Below, in pieces: positions 1-39,496 of a stretch of DNA of 39,496 bases. Under the pieces are notes generated by a model. That model searched no databases. It saw only the letters and a list, made by a program, of their open reading frames with translations, and was not told where the DNA came from. The position numbers were made by a program, and so were the translations under genes. The DNA is from Escherichia phage ZH4. The stretch's first letter is position 1; each line of letters begins with the position of its first letter. The stretch lies in the sequence record OM355495.1. One strand, written 5' to 3'.

Positions 1-1544
1 ATGCCTTGTGTTTCCGATTCAAACCCTTCAAACGTTATTCCATTGCCACAGTTTGTAGCTATGACATTATCCACAACAATGTCAGCAACATAGCGTTTGA
101 ATCCCATAGCTCCATGAGCACAGTCCCGAAAAACAAGGTTAGACATAGCACAGTTACGACTTCCACCAGCTACACTAGAAGACAGGTAAATGCCCAAGTC
201 TCTTACGTTTTCTACGTATAAACCATTTACCCAACAGTTCTTCGTAGTAGCAAACATCAGCCCTGAGTCTGGGGCATTAACCAGAGACACGTTGGTCAGT
301 GAGCATCTATTACCACCAAAGGTGAGAATATCAGCGACCCCGAACTGGGTGTTTTTTGCTTGGTTCCCGTCAATATGTAAGTCCTTGATGTGTACATCAT
401 CAGCACCCATGTTGTGTACTAGGTAATAAGCCTTAGCGTTATCTATGCAGATATTGTCAGCAAATTTTAGCCAACCACCAGCACCCACAAGGATTGTTTT
501 ATTTTTTATCGATAAGCCTGTGAAAATCCACGGATCTCCATTCTTGTTCTTAGGCGTGATCTTAATCGCACAGTAACCTGGAACAGAACCAGCATAATCA
601 AGAGCAGCCTGCAAAGTCTGTTGATCGTTTTTGCTACCGAACATAAAAGAACGAACATCAACAAAATCGTCAACCTGTAGTTCAAGTTGCCTGCCGTCTG
701 CACGGTCAACAATAACAACACCGTCCCCAGTAGAACCCGTATTAGGAACTACGGCATACTTGTTGTAAATACCTGATGCGGTCTTAGTAGCTACTAACCG
801 TCCTTCTTCTGTGGTATTAGTTCCTAGGTTAGCAAAGGTATCCAACTCTACTGCTATACCACCAATTAAAGATGCCCCACCTGACTCCTTTAATTCTGTT
901 CTCAAGGCAGCGTCACCCACACTAACCCACGCACCTAATCCAATCCCACCGGAAGTTTCAGGAGTTGAACCAGCAGGGACGTTCTTTGGAAGCGTGCCAT
1001 CCCAGCGGTAATAATCACCATCCTCTTCCCATAGCAGTACCTCGTTCCATGTTATAACGTTGAAGCCTTTCTCGAAGGATCGACGGGTAATATAGCCAAT
1101 TAGACCGGATGCCTTGATGCTCTCAGCGATTCGTCGTGCTTCGTCCTCGCTATCCTTAGCGTTGCCAGCAGAGCTGCTAGCAGCATCGGCATATTCCTTC
1201 GCTAAGTCAACCGTTTGGTCTCGACCTTCTTCTGCAATATGGATAGCCTGAAGCTCTGCATTGGTCAGGTCACTAGCTGTCAACACTGAGCCATTCCTGA
1301 AGTCTACCACTAAGTCAGTTCCAGTCTGACGGTGAATACGAACGATGTCGAAACCTGATTGGTCAACCAACATCTCAATCATCGTTGGATTAAGGAAGCG
1401 GTAATCGCTACCAACTTCCAGTACACGGTTCAGGGTAGGGTTAGAGCTATTCACCAGCGTAACAACAACAAACGTTCTGGCTAGGTAGTCGAACTCAATC
1501 CTGTACTGAGTGTTTCCTGAAGGGAATTGTGTAATCGTGGACAT
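1..1544 (-). CDS. Tail fiber / tailspike (T7 gene 17 homolog), N-terminal part; ATG at 1544, ORF runs off the window start and continues at 39369 across the circular junction (whole gene about 751 aa)
   Basis: Own translation of minus strand from ATG at 1544 (RBS AGGAGG upstream) gives [33 protein letters not shown]..., matching the T7 gp17 N-terminal region (FEYLARKFVVVTL). Reading frame is continuous with track ORF 38658..39476 via the 127-bp overlap. Absent from the ORF track only because there is no stop inside the window. Confidence 0.85.
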
Positions 1545-22348: not shown

Positions 22349-24052
<1,704 letters not shown>

Positions 24053-30085: not shown

Positions 30086-32767
30086 TTAAGCGAATGCAAA
30101 GTCTGAAGACAAGATGTCTTCGATATTCAGTTTACCTTTCTTCGGAAGCTCAGGCAACTTGTCGCGCTGGCTCTCATGAAGCTGGTATTCGAACTGCTCG
30201 TAGAAGTCAAGCAGCACATCGTTGTCGCGGTAGGTCTCAACCATTGTCTCACGGACTCCACGGAACAGATACTCAGCGTCAGCCGGGATGGTCCCGAAGC
30301 TATCGTGAATCACTGCGAATGACATCACACCATACTTGCGGTGCGTGTGGACTACAGTCTTGCGGAGGTGGCTACCATCTTGTGAGTGGACGAAGTTCGG
30401 GCTGATGCCTGACTCCTGCTTGTGCTTGTCCAGCTCTTTCTTCGTGCCTTTGTTGACTGTAGGCTGAAGGTTGAACGACCCTAAGAACATCAGGTTCAGA
30501 CGAGTGGTATCCTTCTTGCGGTATTCCTGCCAGACCGGGAAACCATCAGGTGTGACCCAGTGTACCGGAAGGCAAGGCTTCAGGATTTCTCCAGTCTTCT
30601 TGTCTTTCACTTCAGCAGCCAGCAGCTTGGCAGCACCTTGAAGCCACTTCATCGCGTCAACCGCAGCAACTACGGTCACACTCACAGCTTCCCAAATCAT
30701 CTTAGCCATGAAGCGAGACGCTTGGCTTGGCTCGGTGAACATAGCGCCAGACCCTGAGTCAATCGCTGGCATCACGATGTCTTCGTACACTTGGTCTGCG
30801 AAGCCATACTCTTTCGACCCGTAGGCCAGAGTCATTACTGAACGCTTAGTGACCTTGCGTGACATACCGTAGGTCAGCCACTGACGGGCCAGCTCTCGTG
30901 TCCCCAGCTTGAGACGTTCGGTAATCTCACCAGTTTTCTTGTCCTCGTGAGTTACCATCTCGTTGTCCGTACCGTTAACCAGCATTACTTTAAGCTCCTC
31001 CTCGATGCGATCAGACACGATGCGGTAGATGTCTTGTACCTTCCCGGAAGGCGTCAGGTTTACTGCATGTCCACCGATGTGGTCACGAAGCATCGCGCTG
31101 AAGTGCTGAATCCCAGAGCATGACCCATCGAACGCTATCGGTAGCGAACAAGAGTAAGACAATCCGTGGTGCATTACTCCAGCATACTCGAAGCAGAACG
31201 CAAGGAAGCAGAAAGGAGAGTCTAGCTTGCCCCACCACTCAATGTTATCCATCGGTGCCTTAGCGGTAGCCATGATGTTGTCGTGATTGTCTTCCACCCA
31301 CTTGATGCGCTCCTCGAAGGTGACTTTATCGACGCCAGCACAGTTTGCACCATGGACCTTCAGCCATTTGAAACCATCAGCGCCAATAGGCTTGCCGACT
31401 GCAAGAGTCAGGAGACCCTTCTGCATGTCGTTACCCTGAGGGTTGAACATCGGGACAGCGTAGACACGACCCCGCCAGTCCATGTTGTACGGGAACCAGA
31501 TGGCCTTGAACTGAGAGAACTTGTTCGCTTGGTTAACGATAAAGCTCAGTGACAATCTGCGTGACTGTCTGGCCTTCTCGCGGCGATAGATACCAGCAGC
31601 AGCCTTCTTCCATGCCTTGAGTTCCTCCTCTGTCTCACCCGCATAGTCCTCAGGCTTCAGTGGTTCCATCTGAGGGATGTCGTCAATAGGCGTGTTGTTC
31701 AGCTTCTCGACCATGTTCACCACGTCCAGAACCTTCTTGTTCACTTTCCAAGGTGTATTCTGAATGATGTTCACAGCGTCATAGACTTCAGGCATGTACA
31801 CGTCTTCGTAACGTGCTACCGCAGACTTAGACCCTAAGCGAATCAATGGTAACGGTCTGCGACCTTTGGCCCAGTACCCACCGCCTACGACACCAGTCCA
31901 CGGCTTAGGTGGAACGACGCAAGGTTGATAGACTGGTGCGATACCCGCAAGGCTAAATCCACGTTGTGCCATCTTCTTTACCCAGAAGTCTGACAGGTGG
32001 ACCATCTCAACGTCAGCCGCTGCATTGCCAGCACCATAACGCTTAAGCTCGACCAGTTGAGTAGACTGGATGACAATCTCAAGCATCTTGATGCCAACGT
32101 GTACCGCCTCGGTCGGACTCCAAGTACCCCACGCATCTTCCAGTTGACCTTGCTCCAGCATGGAGGTCTCAACCGCTTGCATGTAGGCTTTCTTATAGGA
32201 TACCCCGGCTCGCTTGTTCAGGTTCTCAGCTATCGCCTTCTTGAAGTGCTCCTGCTCCTTGTCCCGAATGCGACCGAAGCGGATTTCATCTTCGAGTGTA
32301 CGGCCTATCGCTGAGGCCATCGGTGTAATCGGTATCCCTTCAGGCTTTACCAGCTTGGAGAGTATGACCTTCAGTATGATGACCGCAGCAGACTCGCAAG
32401 AGATACGCAGAGAGCGGTCCTTGACGGCCTTCCCTTCAGTGCTCAACATGGTGAACGCTACGCTAGGACGAGAGGTTGACAGCTTCCCGTCTGGGCCTTC
32501 GTGCCACTCCTTGACGGCTTGCGCAATCTTAGGGACCAGAGTCTGCATCAAAGGCTTGGCTACCTGATTGTCTGCCAGTTCTCCGCGCTCAGTCTGTCGC
32601 TCAAGGTTCTTAATGAAACGTCGCTCGCCTTCAGTGTATGCCTCATGCTCGAGCTGAAGTTGTTTTACTGCAAGGTCTTGCCCGTAGTGGTCGGCCAGCA
32701 GGTTAAACGGCTCAATAGCGTTCGACACATCAGAGAAGTCGTGTTTATCGATAGAGATGACGCTCAT
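30086..32767 (-). CDS. Single-subunit DNA-dependent RNA polymerase (T7 gp1 homolog), 893 aa
   Basis: Collinear with T7 RNAP over the whole length (DFSD...PFN.LADHYG, FQPCVVPPKPWTG..GGGYWA.GRRPL, WFPYNMDWRGRVYAV.MFNPQGNDM.KGLLTLA.GKPIG, DGSCSGIQHFSAMLRD, SVMTLAYGSKE.GF, HDSFGTIPADA, C-terminal FAFA). Specificity-loop region reads QPTVNKGTKK where T7 has QPTINTNKDS. Confidence 0.98.
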   Translation of the reverse strand: MSVISIDKHDFSDVSNAIEPFNLLADHYGQDLAVKQLQLEHEAYTEGERRFIKNLERQTERGELADNQVAKPLMQTLVPKIAQAVKEWHEGPDGKLSTSRPSVAFTMLSTEGKAVKDRSLRISCESAAVIILKVILSKLVKPEGIPITPMASAIGRTLEDEIRFGRIRDKEQEHFKKAIAENLNKRAGVSYKKAYMQAVETSMLEQGQLEDAWGTWSPTEAVHVGIKMLEIVIQSTQLVELKRYGAGNAAADVEMVHLSDFWVKKMAQRGFSLAGIAPVYQPCVVPPKPWTGVVGGGYWAKGRRPLPLIRLGSKSAVARYEDVYMPEVYDAVNIIQNTPWKVNKKVLDVVNMVEKLNNTPIDDIPQMEPLKPEDYAGETEEELKAWKKAAAGIYRREKARQSRRLSLSFIVNQANKFSQFKAIWFPYNMDWRGRVYAVPMFNPQGNDMQKGLLTLAVGKPIGADGFKWLKVHGANCAGVDKVTFEERIKWVEDNHDNIMATAKAPMDNIEWWGKLDSPFCFLAFCFEYAGVMHHGLSYSCSLPIAFDGSCSGIQHFSAMLRDHIGGHAVNLTPSGKVQDIYRIVSDRIEEELKVMLVNGTDNEMVTHEDKKTGEITERLKLGTRELARQWLTYGMSRKVTKRSVMTLAYGSKEYGFADQVYEDIVMPAIDSGSGAMFTEPSQASRFMAKMIWEAVSVTVVAAVDAMKWLQGAAKLLAAEVKDKKTGEILKPCLPVHWVTPDGFPVWQEYRKKDTTRLNLMFLGSFNLQPTVNKGTKKELDKHKQESGISPNFVHSQDGSHLRKTVVHTHRKYGVMSFAVIHDSFGTIPADAEYLFRGVRETMVETYRDNDVLLDFYEQFEYQLHESQRDKLPELPKKGKLNIEDILSSDFAFA

Positions 32768-33646: not shown

Positions 33647-34152
33647 TACTCGCAGTCCTCGTCAGCCGCAGGGTCGAACACTACGTTATCGTCGATGTCT
33701 TCGACTTTCAGGTGGCGACCTATCACATAGTGATCCTTGGCACATGCAGTAGCGACCTCAAGAGACACAGCTTGCTCAATGAGTACACCTGTCTTAGCGT
33801 CGACTACCCAATACTCATCCTCCTCGTCGCTCTCTTCAGCCTCAAACCATACCACATCCGAGCTATTAGACACGTCGTTATAAAGCGCCTCATAGATGCG
33901 AGCTTGCAGTATACGCGTTACGTCCTTGGTCTCAGGCATCAGCCCAGAGTCCTCAAACTCATGGTCTATACCATCAGCAGCCATCACCGTAAAAATCTCG
34001 TGGTAATAGTGCGGAACCTGACCGTCTACGACTTCATGCAGCGCATCGTGGTAGTCATCGCTTTCAGCTATTTCGTCGTACTGAATACGCTCGTTAAATG
34101 CTTTAACGGTTGCGGCCAGCAGCTCATAGTATGCGTTAGCGTTACGTTCCAT
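33646..34152 (-). CDS. ocr: Ocr-like DNA-mimic anti-restriction protein (T7 gp0.3 homolog) with a C-terminal extension, 168 aa
   Basis: [66 protein letters not shown] matches T7 Ocr ([66 protein letters not shown]). First gene after the host promoters. About 50 extra C-terminal residues beyond the acidic tail. Confidence 0.9.
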
Positions 34153-34345
34153 AGTTATATCCTCTCAAAGTTGTTTGTGTATGTTAGTGACTATCAGTCA
34201 GGGCCTTCAGATGTAGACTCAAAGACCCTGTAGTTAGTCGCTATCGGCGCACATTAAGAGTTTATCCAGATTATTAAAGAGCATTCGCGTTGGCTGTCGT
34301 CGCCGTGCTATCCCGTTTCAGTGTTGGGACTCACCGTTGTTTCGA

Positions 34346-34382
34346 TGTGGTACAGCTTACAGCTTTTAAAGGAGGCTGTCAA
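34346..34382 (-). promoter_or_regulatory. Host sigma70-type early promoter (T7 A3-like): -35 TTGACA, 17-nt spacer, -10 TAAGCT, then GTACCACATCGAAACAACGGTGAGTC
   Basis: Minus sense TTGACAgcctcctttaaaagctgTAAGCTgtaccacatcgaaacaacggtgagtccc; the downstream segment closely resembles the T7 A3 initial transcribed region (GTACCACATGAAACGACAGTGAGTCA). Confidence 0.65.
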
Positions 34383-34494
34383 CCTGTTATTCTTTTATGC
34401 GATGAGTGACCGAATTCGACTCATGGCTAGTGCCTTATCCTTGGCTGGTCTCGGGCAGGTTTCTCGGTTCCTATCCCTACGCCATCTTGCTACG

Positions 34495-34530
34495 TGGTAC
34501 ATATTACTTTAAGTCGGTACATCTTGTCAA
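34495..34530 (-). promoter_or_regulatory. Host sigma70-type early promoter: -35 TTGACA, 18-nt spacer, -10 TAATAT, followed by GTACCAC
   Basis: Minus sense TTGACAagatgtaccgacttaaagTAATATgtaccacg, about 350 nt upstream of the Ocr gene; near-consensus hexamers. Confidence 0.7.
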
Positions 34531-34779
34531 CTACTTTCTGTCATCTGCCTGTTTTTCGTATGACTTATCAGGCTGTCTACTTGACCGGGATGACCCGGCG
34601 TCTTCACTATCCGGTTGTTGCCGTGTCGTGTTGACGGAAGCTATTAAGCCACAATCTAGGACTGTAGTCAATAGTTAATTTGAAATAATATTGATTAAGC
34701 TATCGTCGGCCCATGGTGACTAAGATGATATAGTCTTTGACTAACATGTCTTTGACCTTAAGTCTATATCTTTATGTCT

Positions 34780-35270
34780 ATTAACTGTAGGTCTCTGACT
34801 GTAGGTAATGGCTTTACCGACGGTCTGTGACTGTAGGTTGTTGGACTGTAGGTTGTTGGACTTATGGTTATACAGATAAAGACTCGGAGACAGACCAATA
34901 GTCCCAACCTATCGTCTCCACCTCCACCGATAGTCATGACCTATCGTTGACAAAAGGTATTGACAGCCGGTCCAACCTTATGATATACTGAAGGTAGGGC
35001 CACCCTTGGTCTGGACTGAAAGAGGGCCTGCGGGGGAGACTTGAGGTTCTTGAACTATGAGATGTGGTCTCAAACTTTTGGTCCAAAACTCATCGTCACT
35101 ACTGCAGTCCACAGCCACTGTAGGTCAAGGACCGTAGGTCAGGCGACACTAGGATAGACCAATAAGTAGGATGACCCTAAGTGAGCTTCTATTAAGGTGT
35201 TACCTAAAGTCCTTGACTACAGTAGCTAAGGTCAGTAGAGTAGCGTCAGCTATGAACTGACCTTAGGTCT
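34780..35270. repeat. Repeat-rich non-coding region containing the predicted physical genome ends and collapsed terminal repeat (ACCTACAG / GACCTTAGGTC-type short repeats)
   Basis: No credible ORFs. Multiple CTGTAGGT/CCGTAGGT copies and GACCTTAAGTC-like palindromes. Lies between gene 19.5 (right end) and the early promoters (left end), analogous to the T7 terminal-repeat-proximal CCTAAAG arrays. Confidence 0.5.
34947..34990 (+). promoter_or_regulatory. Sigma70-like promoter on the opposite (plus) strand: tandem TTGACA boxes, 18-nt spacer, -10 TATACT
   Basis: Plus sense cgTTGACAaaaggtatTGACAgccggtccaaccttatgaTATACTg, inside the terminal region and pointing away from the early genes. No downstream ORF. 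Confidence 0.4.
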
Positions 35271-35299
35271 TCCGCTCATGAATCGTTACCATGATTGCG

Positions 35300-35458
35300 T
35301 TAATTACACTGAGACACCAGAGAACATACGAGAGTCTCGACCCACCCGACCCACTGACTTCCAGCAGTAACGCCAGCAGTAAGTAGAACAGCAGCAAGAA
35401 ACCTGTATGTAGCTCGATTGGTCGCCAGAGCTTTAAGTACAGCTTTGGTCTTTGCCAT
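35300..35458 (-). CDS. gp19.5-like small protein, 52 aa
   Basis: Own translation MAKTKAVLKALATNRATYRFLAAVLLTAGVTAGSQWVGWVETLVCSLVSQCN; the TYRFL.. hydrophobic core resembles what I recall of T7 gp19.5; lies downstream of the right-end promoter as in T7. Below track cutoff. Confidence 0.45.
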   Translation of the reverse strand: MAKTKAVLKALATNRATYRFLAAVLLTAGVTAGSQWVGWVETLVCSLVSQCN

Positions 35459-35639
35459 ATGCTACATACCTCCTGTATCTATGGTCGGTGACTATCTGTA
35501 TTGGAGGGATTATGATTAATATCACCCTCCTTCCATCGGTGCAAGCCTTAGGTAAGAACTCGGAGTCTGCCTCCTAAGGTCTTGCATAAAGTCTGCATAT
35601 GTATATTCACTACAGTAATACTATAAGTAACCGGGGGGT

Positions 35640-35662
35640 CTTCCCTATAGTGATAGTTAAGT
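35640..35662 (-). promoter_or_regulatory. Phage RNAP promoter (phiOR-like) downstream of terminase, minus sense CTTAACTATCACTATAGGGAAGA, +1 near 35645
   Basis: Consensus copy about 95 nt after the large terminase stop, preceding the 19.5-like ORF and the genome end region. Confidence 0.8.
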
Positions 35663-35756
35663 CCAAACTCCTTGTAAAACAGTAGGTTAGACTGGTAGTA
35701 ACTATAGGTTACTAACCGCGTATTCATGCAGCTTTCACCCATAGTTATTCATTCAG

Positions 35757-37520
35757 CTAGTGGAACGTAACGTAGGACCCTAGTCCCAGCTCGTCGTCTG
35801 TATCGTGAGTTACCCTGACCCCATTGTCCCAGAACTCAGTGTGTATTGACTCGAAGCCTTTCCGTGGGTTCTCCATCTGTTCCTCAAGCCACTCCTCAGT
35901 GACTTCACGTTCTCCTTTGTTGGCATCCTTAGCCATGGACTCAACGAAGAACTGTACACCGATAGCCAGCGCATCAAGTCGGTCATCATGTGCCAAGGCT
36001 CCACGTTCACGAGATATACGTGTCATCTGGTAGAAGAGAGAGTAGATAGGGTTACGAACACCATCCTTATCAGCGGCTGACTGGTAGTCTTGGACGATAG
36101 CAGCAGCGTTAACGATAAGTCTGTGAGACCCCATGATAGGCTCCAGAACGTCACAGATGCGGAGTTCTTTCTGACCCTTACTCTTCACTTCAGTTACAGC
36201 AGCAGGATGGATACGGGCCGCTACAGGCTTGAATAACTCAAGGTACATACCATCACCGAAGTTACCCTCAATGACGTATTCGTTGACCTTCCACTTACGA
36301 CCAATCTTAGCCAAGGCTTCCAGCGTAGAGTCTTCATAACCACCACGCATGCCACCAACTTCCATAGCGAAGATGTAGCCGTTGAGTTGATACAGTACCG
36401 CATAACCAGTTTCATCCTTACCACGACCACTAGGGTCAATGACCAGAATCTTCTGGGTGTATGAGCTGAACGCAGAACCTACAGTCTGATACGTGTGGTA
36501 CGAGTCACCCATGAGTCCAACGTTAGGAACGTCCTCACGCTTGTTCTGAGGGTTCGGCAACCATTGGTAGACCATTGGACTGGACGCTGGGTCCAAGTCT
36601 GCTACGATAAGGTCACGGAGCTTCAGAGGGTACTTCTCTGCATCACTCAGGTTCGGGTTAAGCATGAACTGTAGAGCGAAGCCAGCTTTACCGTAAGATA
36701 ACTCACGTTCCTTAAGGTCCGTATCATCGAAGCGTACTTCATCAGTCGGACGCCAGTAGAAGGACTCAGGGTCCTCTTCCAGCTCTGCTTGAAGCATAGG
36801 AGCCAGACGGTCGCCGTAAGACTGCCAGTCCTTCCTGTCGCGTGGATAACGAGCCGGCCAGATAGTAGTGGTATACCCACGACCTTCAAGCTCACGATAC
36901 AGGGTCATCTCGTTCTGAGGAGTACCCAGATAGATTATTGTACCTCCAGGCTTAAGGATAGCGTCGAACTCTTTCACAAGCTCTGACAGACGGTCTCGCG
37001 CAGCCTGAGTAGCAGAGTTGTTAGGAACCTCCACGTCATCGGCAATCAGGATGTCAGCACGACTACCAGTCAACTGACCAGTGATACCAACGGACTTAAC
37101 AGAAGGTGAGTGGTCTGGCTTGGCTGGCCCAACGTCGAAGCTAATAACCGCATCTCGCTGTCCCTGCTTAGGTTTGAGTTCCTGAAGCTGAGGCATTAGG
37201 TCGATGATTCGCTTGATGAAGATGGAGTTAGCATCAGCTCGTTCCTTTGAGGCCGACACAATCATGAACTTCAAGTCTGGGTTGTTCCATAGTTTCCAGA
37301 CCACGAAGGCACACGTAATGAAGGACTTCCCGATACCACGGAACGCCTGTAGGATGAAACGCCTGTTGTCCCCAGCGGAGAGCTTACGAGCCATATCTAT
37401 CTGGCATCTAGTCGGGACTGGTAGTGACAGAGCTTTCCACAGGACGAACAGGAAGAACACGAAGTCTGCCTTCATACGGGCAGTCATTAGCGCCTGACGC
37501 GCCACTAAGTCTTTACTCAA
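35757..37520 (-). CDS. Terminase large subunit / DNA maturase B (T7 gp19 homolog), 587 aa
   Basis: Near-identical blocks with T7 gp19 ([167 protein letters not shown]). Confidence 0.98.
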
Positions 37521-38657: not shown

Positions 38658-39496
38658 TTAATTTGATATTTGTTTCCAGTCAGAACTAGTCAACCCGTGT
38701 GACTTCCACCATGAGTTAGCGCTGTCACTCCATACTTCTTGCCCTATAAAGCGAGGAATTACTGTAGCTACAGGAGTAGGGCCGGATACAACTTGATACC
38801 CATACTTAGCTGGTCCTATAGCATTGTTCAAGATAAAATCTTTAGTTATTCCTCTTGCGCCATTAAACCACTCTAGATCCGTACCGCTAATACCGCTAAT
38901 AAACTCAGGTGAAAACTTAGTGAAACTGCAGCCAGCGTTCACTCGTGCCCCGTTGTAAGCGCTATATCCACTAGCCTGCGTGTTGCTCCAGCGACCACCA
39001 ACCACACTACCGTTGCTGCAATTTAAGAAGTACGCAGCATATCTAGCGAAACCTTCCAGGTTAACGTTTACAAGCTCAAATCCTGATGCACCATTGCACT
39101 GGATGCCATCATTGTTCGGTACACCACTTGTTGCTATTTGTGGGTTAGAGGCATACCCAGTTAAATTTGCACCATTAATAAAAATGCCGGTATTGGTATT
39201 CGCACCAAAGTATATACCAACTCCAGAGCAGTTCTGAACACTCAGGTTATTGATACGAATACCACTGGCATAGTTGAAACTGATAGCTCGTTCAGCCGCA
39301 CGCACACTCCTGTACCCAAAACCAATATCACGAAGGCGTATGTTACTCATAGTGATGTTAGCTGGGTTCATGCCTTGTGTTTCCGATTCAAACCCTTCAA
39401 ACGTTATTCCATTGCCACAGTTTGTAGCTATGACATTATCCACAACAATGTCAGCAACATAGCGTTTGAATCCCATAGCTCCATGAGCACAGTCCC
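38658..39496 (-). CDS. Tail fiber / tailspike (gene 17), C-terminal part with right-handed beta-helix (pectate-lyase-like) domain; continues upstream across the window junction (39370..39496 duplicates 1..127)
   Basis: Track ORF 38658..39476 is in frame with the minus-strand ORF from 1544. Repeated beta-helix-like rungs ([48 protein letters not shown]) typical of phage tailspike depolymerases. Confidence 0.85.
   Translation of the reverse strand, partial: DCAHGAMGFKRYVADIVVDNVIATNCGNGITFEGFESETQGMNPANITMSNIRLRDIGFGYRSVRAAERAISFNYASGIRINNLSVQNCSGVGIYFGANTNTGIFINGANLTGYASNPQIATSGVPNNDGIQCNGASGFELVNVNLEGFARYAAYFLNCSNGSVVGGRWSNTQASGYSAYNGARVNAGCSFTKFSPEFISGISGTDLEWFNGARGITKDFILNNAIGPAKYGYQVVSGPTPVATVIPRFIGQEVWSDSANSWWKSHGLTSSDWKQISN
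39370..39496. repeat. 127-bp exact duplicate of window positions 1..127 (circular-assembly overlap, lies inside gene 17)
   Basis: Direct comparison of the window ends; ORF-track coordinates confirm an offset of 39,369. Confidence 0.9.

Follow-up and report, generated by a model that had tools for sequence, protein, structure and literature searches.

Probable genome ends and a single-copy terminal repeat at the concatemer junction of a K1F-like Kayfunavirus

The span between the last gene and the early promoters of this phage is very probably the concatemer-junction region of a K1F-like phage, in which a circular assembly shows the direct terminal repeat once (probability about 0.88, with processing presumably of the T7/T3 type). 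BLAST comparison of the window (the whole stretch of DNA analysed, 39,496 nt) with deposited phages revealed a complete Kayfunavirus genome (K1F-like, T7 family, Studiervirinae) in minus-strand orientation. Most of its sequence matches phages PH1061 and ST31 at about 94-95% identity, and over the full length of the junction region the identity to deposited records reaches 92%. On the phage strand (window minus), gene 19 is followed by a phiOR-type promoter, 19.5, and 237 bp of non-coding DNA ending in ...GAGACCACA. Then come the predicted left end (TCTCATAG... at 35062), a repeat of about 185 bp reaching to about 34878, ATCTGTA, a ACCTACAG array, the A1-A3 promoters, and gene 0.3 (Table 1). 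Gene 19 is the last large gene before the genome right end, and the junction sits between 19.5, which lies after this terminase gene, and the early host promoters with gene 0.3, as in the T7 group.

Table 1. Features of the junction region and of the genes and promoters that border it (window coordinates)
Feature	Position	Strand	Basis or description
Gene 19, terminase large subunit	35757..37520	minus	587-aa ORF; Pfam Terminase-T7_RNaseH-like, E = 6e-38
Candidate phage-RNAP promoter in phiOR position	35640..35660	minus	TTAACTATCACTATAGGGAAG; transcribes towards junction
gp19.5-like ORF, last gene of genome	35300..35458	minus	52 aa; homologous ORFs annotated gp19.5 in PE3-1 and CR44b
Right-end unique non-coding region, analogous to T7 SRR zone	35063..35299	minus	150/237 columns invariant, 15 genomes
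Hairpin	35226..35266	minus	Inverted repeat; perfect 11-bp stem CTAAGGTCAGT / ACTGACCTTAG; DNA fold -11.2 kcal/mol, z = -4.6
Long imperfect inverted repeat	35117..35222	minus	About 20 pairs; arms 35201-35222 and 35117-35139; DNA fold
Terminal repeat, single copy, about 185 bp (predicted)	34878..35062	minus	Mapped from SH3, EPr2, and T3; boundaries kept in 6 relatives and T7
Sigma-70-type promoter inside repeat, A0-like	34960..34989	plus	TTGACA-18-TATACT with upstream TG, 11/12; leftward on phage map
ATCTGTA, counterpart of T7/T3 class II RNAP pause signal ATCTGTT	34871..34877	minus	Directly after repeat
Post-repeat array, analogous to T7 SRL	34715..34870	minus	4 exact ACCTACAG and about 6 degenerate units, period about 14-15 nt
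A1-like host promoter (putative)	34643..34671	minus	TTGACT-17-CTTAAT; start of conserved leader block
A2-like host promoter	34501..34530	minus	TTGACA-18-TAATAT; the early promoter at 34530 of the initial annotation
A3-like host promoter	34354..34382	minus	TTGACA-17-TAAGCT; aligns to T7 A3 region
Gene 0.3, Ocr DNA mimic, first gene of genome	33646..34152	minus	ORF; Pfam ocr, E = 1e-31

Genome ends and the terminal repeat

By homology, the genome left end is placed at 35062 on the minus strand, reading TCTCATAGTTCAAG..., and the right end at about 34878 (...GAGTCTTT), with an uncertainty of about 4 bp. The ends of phage SH3 were measured by run-off Sanger sequencing of phage DNA (PMC4925675), and the 184-bp SH3 repeat maps end to end onto 35062->34874 with 90.5% identity. 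The 179-bp repeat of EPr2, taken from a PhageTerm-style, read-based annotation, maps to 35062->34878. At the left terminus of T3, base 1 aligns to 35062 and the first 18 nt are identical, with bases 1-70 corresponding to 35062-34993. The deposited ends of K1F, IMEP24, yong1, and CR44b are likewise found at homologous positions. A scan of viral contigs with the cut-site 17-mer returned 21 loci, from which L020, L032, L033, and L035 were discarded as chance matches inside unrelated coding DNA. Six relatives, together with further IMG/VR contigs, stop 179-196 nt past the conserved left-end site; over eight such contigs the distance is 179-223 nt.

Repeats could be recovered from the two ends of the records themselves for SH3 (184 bp), CR44b and yong1 (183 bp), K1F (178 bp), IMEP24 (184 bp), and T7 (160 bp), and all of them begin TCTCAC... 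For K1F a length of 179 bp is also given as a second-hand figure (PMC4925675). Deposited repeat lengths in the genus span 178-190 bp with boundary registers that differ by 2-4 bp, and the right-boundary register is not the same in SH3, in EPr2 and T7, and in K1F. The terminus motif TCTCA(C/T)AG is found at the left end of the window (TCTCATAGTTCAAG) as well as in T7, T3, K1F, SH3, IMEP24, yong1, and EPr2. In the Kayfunavirus relatives the right-hand repeat copy is preceded by ...TTTGAGACCACA, and the repeat end, ...GAGTCT(C/T)T, adjoins ATCTGTA. The T7 and T3 repeats end in ...GTGTCCCT, followed by ATCTGTT.

A search of the whole window found the repeat once. Window positions 1-127 are identical to 39370-39496, leaving 39,369 bp of unique sequence; this 127-nt identity is a k-mer-sized circularisation overlap produced by the assembler, and the contig start is arbitrary, falling inside a gene. 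Since the repeat occurs once and the contig closes on itself through this overlap, the repeat is a single, collapsed copy. A single copy is also the natural state of a replicative concatemer junction. The initial annotation had proposed that the genome ends lie within 34700-35300 and that the terminal repeat is collapsed in the assembly; both proposals are supported, the former by the homology mapping of the relatives' termini to 35062 and about 34878. An annotator should open the genome at 35062 on the minus strand, trim the 127-nt assembly overlap, and append a second repeat copy of about 185 bp to the right end, which brings the true virion length to about 39,369 + 185 = 39,554 bp.

Conservation along the junction was assessed in an alignment of 15 genomes. 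Within the repeat, 44/55 columns are invariant over the first 55 nt and 28/47 over the last 47 nt, compared with 16/83 in the middle, where indels are numerous. Overall, the right-end region and the repeat edges are invariant, and the repeat interior and the array are variable. At position 6 of the genome (35057, minus strand) the window carries T, reading TCTCATAG as in T3, where the relatives carry C; 14/14 Kayfunavirus relatives read TCTCACAG or TCTCACAC at this left end. Near the left end the window also has CCCCCGCAGG in place of the relatives' CCCCATAGG. The EPr2 record (OM256482.1) contains the repeat at 837-1015 and at 1337-1515, one copy being internal in a normal junction context and the other at the record end. 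The sequence preceding the second copy is unlike the conserved ...GAGACCACA, which suggests that the record had been re-linearised at an incorrect position before a second copy of the repeat was added.

The span was described in the initial annotation as free of credible ORFs, and comparison with 14 relatives bears this out. None of the small ORFs in the junction span is conserved among them, and four ORFs of 38-57 aa within 34764-35157 are interrupted by frameshifts or early stops in most of the 14. The 38-aa ORF at 35041-35157 (plus strand), which straddles the cut site, keeps the same stop in 8/14 relatives; this is explained by the near-invariant DNA, and the ORF was rejected. An Rfam scan of 34000-35800 at E <= 1 gave zero matches, and a scan for intrinsic terminators found none. 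The stated size of the span, roughly 1.1 kb between the 19.5 stop (35300) and the promoter at 34530, has to be corrected to 770 bp; a distance of 1,147 bp is reached only at the start of gene 0.3 (34152).

Sequence elements on either side of the repeat

The 237-bp region between 19.5 and the repeat has GACCTAAGG, GACCTACGG, and GACCTACAG units dispersed along it, and its last bases before the left-end cut site are ...TTTGAGACCACA. It is probably the terminase recognition (pac-like) region, for which it is the best candidate; the ground for assigning recognition to it is the pacB-type recognition of T3 and T7. Two secondary structures are predicted here. The stem of the hairpin is invariant among relatives and its loop occurs in two alternative versions, and both arms of the long inverted repeat are essentially invariant in the 15 genomes, the downstream arm (35117-35139) carrying ACCTACGG and ACCTACAG units. 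As the stems never vary, no covariation is seen. Another palindrome, TTTTGGACCAAAA (35076-35088), located before the cut site, was rejected as a hairpin, being no more stable than shuffled sequences (z = -0.26). The GACCTTAAGTC-like palindromes that had been reported from the first inspection are present at three sites, though imperfect: GACCTTAAGTC at 34754-34764, GACCGTAGGTC at 35130-35140, and GACCTTAGGTC at 35259-35269.

The short repeats that the same inspection had placed around 34790..34850 and 35118..35140 were found there and are significantly enriched. On the plus strand CTGTAGGT, which is ACCTACAG on the minus strand, lies at 34785-34792, 34799-34806, 34831-34838, 34846-34853, and 35118-35125, and CCGTAGGT lies at 35132-35139. 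In the whole window ACCTACAG has 13 exact copies against 1.78 +/- 1.24 expected, a number reached by 0/100 shuffles. Between 34715 and 34877 there are four exact copies on one strand, packed into 69 bp (34785-34853), where the frequency in the rest of the genome predicts 0.019 (Poisson P = 5e-9). When one mismatch is allowed (<=1), 34715-35299 holds 7 copies compared with 0.54 expected (P = 1.7e-6). Degenerate units of the post-repeat array include ACCATAAG, ACATAAAG, and ACTTAAGG. Across the 15 genomes this array measures 149-328 bp and is composed of 2-7 exact ACCTACAG copies together with ACCATA(A/G)G variants, with a unit of about 15 nt.

Short-repeat arrays are therefore present on both sides of the repeat, as in the T7 group. 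They flank the genome ends and do not contain them, and are not the cut sites. The variation in array length is what replication slippage would produce, and a change in copy number would be tolerated. The ACCTACAG arrays may be spacers or weak protein-binding sites; to our knowledge, the role of such arrays is unproven even in T7. Outside the terminal region, eight further ACCTACAG copies are scattered over both strands (8739, 12060, 15395, 16748, 18898, 27909, 29862, and 36477), compared with about 1.7 expected for the whole window. This excess may reflect codon or oligonucleotide bias, or the copies may be scattered relics.

At the right edge of the repeat, ATCTGTA is invariant in 15/15 Kayfunavirus genomes, and T7 and T3 have ATCTGTT at the same place. 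The class II signal ATCTGTT is located at the T7 concatemer junction; ATCTGTA matches it at 6/7 positions, and its location and orientation are those of the class II signal at the repeat right edge. The PE3-1 record labels CTATCTGT as 'concatemeric junction'. For T7 RNAP, any base change in the signal was reported to abolish class II termination; the polymerase of this phage is K1F-type, not T7 RNAP. On the sense strand ATCTGTA occurs once, at the junction only, against about three expected, which is not a significant avoidance, and a depletion test for ATCTGTW on the sense strand was also not significant. ATCTGTT itself is found twice on the transcribed strand inside genes (23841-23847 and 30264-30270, minus); recognition of this sequence by the K1F-type polymerase would make them internal pause sites.

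The TTAACTATCACTATAGGGAAG promoter that points at the junction has four more copies at <=3 mismatches elsewhere on the minus strand, compared with 0 expected, and the T7 and T3 records place phiOR in the same interval, between genes 19 and 19.5. No other site in the region matches the sigma-70 consensus as well as the promoter at 34960-34989 (plus). A consensus phiOL was not found at <=3 mismatches in the interval from the array to the first host promoter (34640-34690, minus). A degenerate phiOL look-alike, TTAACTATTGACTACAG, overlaps the -35 box of the A1-like promoter, and relatives read ...CTATTGACTATAGG there.

The non-coding block at 34535-34714 (minus), 180 bp lying between the array and the A2-like promoter, has 115/180 invariant columns in the 15 genomes. 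The identity of its leader core (34546-34588) is 95% with T3 and 88% with T7 (AAGTAGACAGCCTGATAAGTC..ACGAAAAACAGG), and the leader downstream of the A1-like promoter (34546-34596) is homologous to the A1-A2 interval of T7 and T3. A 46-aa TTG-start ORF (34531-34671) overlaps the block and is full length in 11/14 relatives. Since this ORF begins in the putative -35 box and is without synonymous-type variation, the constraint appears to act at the DNA or RNA level. Further downstream, a boxA-like GCTCTTTAATAA(TCTGG) at 34271-34282 (minus), upstream of gene 0.3, aligns with GCTCTTTAACAATCTGG of the T7/T3 early leader.

Proposed processing of the junction and alternative readings

The presence of a phiOR-type promoter aimed at the junction, together with ATCTGTA at the repeat right edge in every genome of the genus, led to the proposal of the T7/T3 route. 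The literature describes RNAP, together with lysozyme, as pausing at the junction and interacting with gp18/gp19. It also describes repeats as made by extension at staggered nicks and as showing twofold coverage, and assemblers as setting the first base arbitrarily. By analogy with T7 and T3, replication would yield concatemers in which genomes follow head to tail and share one repeat copy at each joint. The phage polymerase, arriving from phiOR, would pause at ATCTGT where the repeat ends on the right, and would help to recruit terminase (gp18/gp19), which would recognise the conserved right-end region and cut at the repeat right edge (about 34878). A nick at the left edge (35062) followed by DNA synthesis would then duplicate the repeat, placing it at both ends of every packaged genome. 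That the repeat must be duplicated during packaging, and that variable arrays adjoin the left repeat, has been described (PMC5923468), and published duplication models include a hairpin intermediate. A more elaborate version of this scheme is conceivable, although we regard it as doubtful. In it K1F-like phages use the genus-specific ATCTGTA, read by their own RNA polymerase, the hairpin at 35226-35266 and the inverted repeat at 35117-35222 serve terminase or replication in hairpin-primed duplication of the repeat, and the ACCTACAG array is a dispensable buffer.

Headful packaging of circularly permuted DNA without fixed ends, which would make the region merely an intergenic regulatory or origin sequence, is extremely improbable. 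The self-closure of the contig through 127 nt, taken alone, fits permutation and a terminal repeat equally well. However, the terminase is T7-type, and the span shares 86-95% identity with regions of relatives that were deposited with the repeat at both ends of the record; the records of the six relatives and the IMG/VR contigs do begin or end at the conserved positions, and in SH3 fixed ends were measured. If the ends are fixed, they could still lie within the region but off the homologous positions, the repeat being shorter or reaching into the ACCTACAG array so that the arrays hold the cleavage site. The spread of repeat lengths and boundary registers in the genus leaves some room for this, as does position 6, where the window differs from 14/14 relatives (TCTCATAG vs TCTCACAG). 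We nevertheless consider it quite improbable, given that both boundary motifs (GAGACCACA joined to TCTCA, and GAGTCTTT joined to ATCTGTA) are present and conserved in the window, that TCTCATAG is also found at the known terminus of T3, and that array length is free to vary among relatives while the boundaries are fixed.

A different question is raised by the arrays, which could be required as sites that a packaging or ejection protein (for example, the small terminase) binds specifically, forming a functional core rather than a tolerated spacer. Their units are strand-specific, spaced by about 14-15 nt, and maintained beside the repeat in T7, T3-like, and K1F-like phages despite sequence turnover; on the right side they do not vary and make up inverted repeats. 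On the left side, however, arrays of close relatives differ in length (149-328 bp), in the number of exact copies (2-7), and in their variants, which argues against a precise requirement. An experimental function for the arrays was not found in the literature searched, where a search on 'CCTAAAG' gave nothing relevant. A required role is thus rather unlikely, and the preferred reading remains that of a concatemer junction whose ends lie at the homologous positions, flanked by arrays that tolerate changes in copy number.

Comparison with Kayfunavirus, T7, and T3-like junctions

The closest counterparts are the direct terminal repeats of other Kayfunaviruses (K1F, 178-179 bp; SH3, 183-184 bp; CR44b; EPr2, 179 bp), which are orthologous, with 86-95% identity across the junction. 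They share with the window the start TCTCAC/TAG, the end GAGTCTYT followed by ATCTGTA, the conserved right-end flank, and a ACCTACAG array. The window's repeat differs in being about 185 bp long, in having indels of its own within the variable middle, and in having T rather than C at position 6. The window's array has 4 exact ACCTACAG copies where other Kayfunaviruses have 2-7, and the window shows the repeat once owing to the circular assembly.

The T7 junction has the same order of elements. In the T7 sequence the 19.5 stop is followed by 239 bp with dispersed CCTA(A/T)AG, the 160-bp repeat, ATCTGTT, and twelve C(C/A/T)TAAAG units about 14 nt apart, which confirms the earlier statement that CCTAAAG-type arrays lie on both sides of the T7 repeat. 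The distance from 19.5 to the repeat is thus 239 bp in T7 and 237 bp in the window, and both phages have the start TCTCA.AG, ATCTGT directly after the repeat, and then an array whose units recur about every 14 nt. They differ in the unit (CCTAAAG in T7, ACCTACAG in the window), in the signal (ATCTGTT and ATCTGTA, respectively), and in that the window is without a consensus phiOL between the array and A1. BLAST alignments between T7 and the window cover the A1-A2 leader (T7 539-586 with 34596-34548) and the A3/boxA region (T7 712-871 with 34384-34225), and no similarity was returned within the repeat interior or the arrays. Therefore the resemblance of the ends lies in their layout and end motifs and not in alignable homology.

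T3, with a 231-bp repeat, is identical over the first 18 nt and aligns at 79% over bases 1-70. Its record contains a leftward A0 inside the repeat, which shares AGGTATTGAC with the window's promoter at 34960-34989, and a 43-nt leader block is 95% identical to the window. T3 differs in its longer repeat, in ATCTGTT, in flanking units of CCTAAAG/CTTAAAG, and in having an annotated phiOL. In the T3-like Yersinia fPS phages, 11-34 repeats were found between the left repeat and the first promoter, with near-identical phages differing in copy number and hence in how far the first promoter lies from the repeat (PMC5923468). Array length varies likewise across Kayfunaviruses, although the unit sequence and the genus differ. 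Taken together, the junction is the standard, already described end architecture of the T7 group, and characterised relatives share about 90-95% identity with this phage; the only mildly new points are an ATCTGTA variant common to the whole genus and a 237-bp right-end non-coding region that is very strongly conserved.
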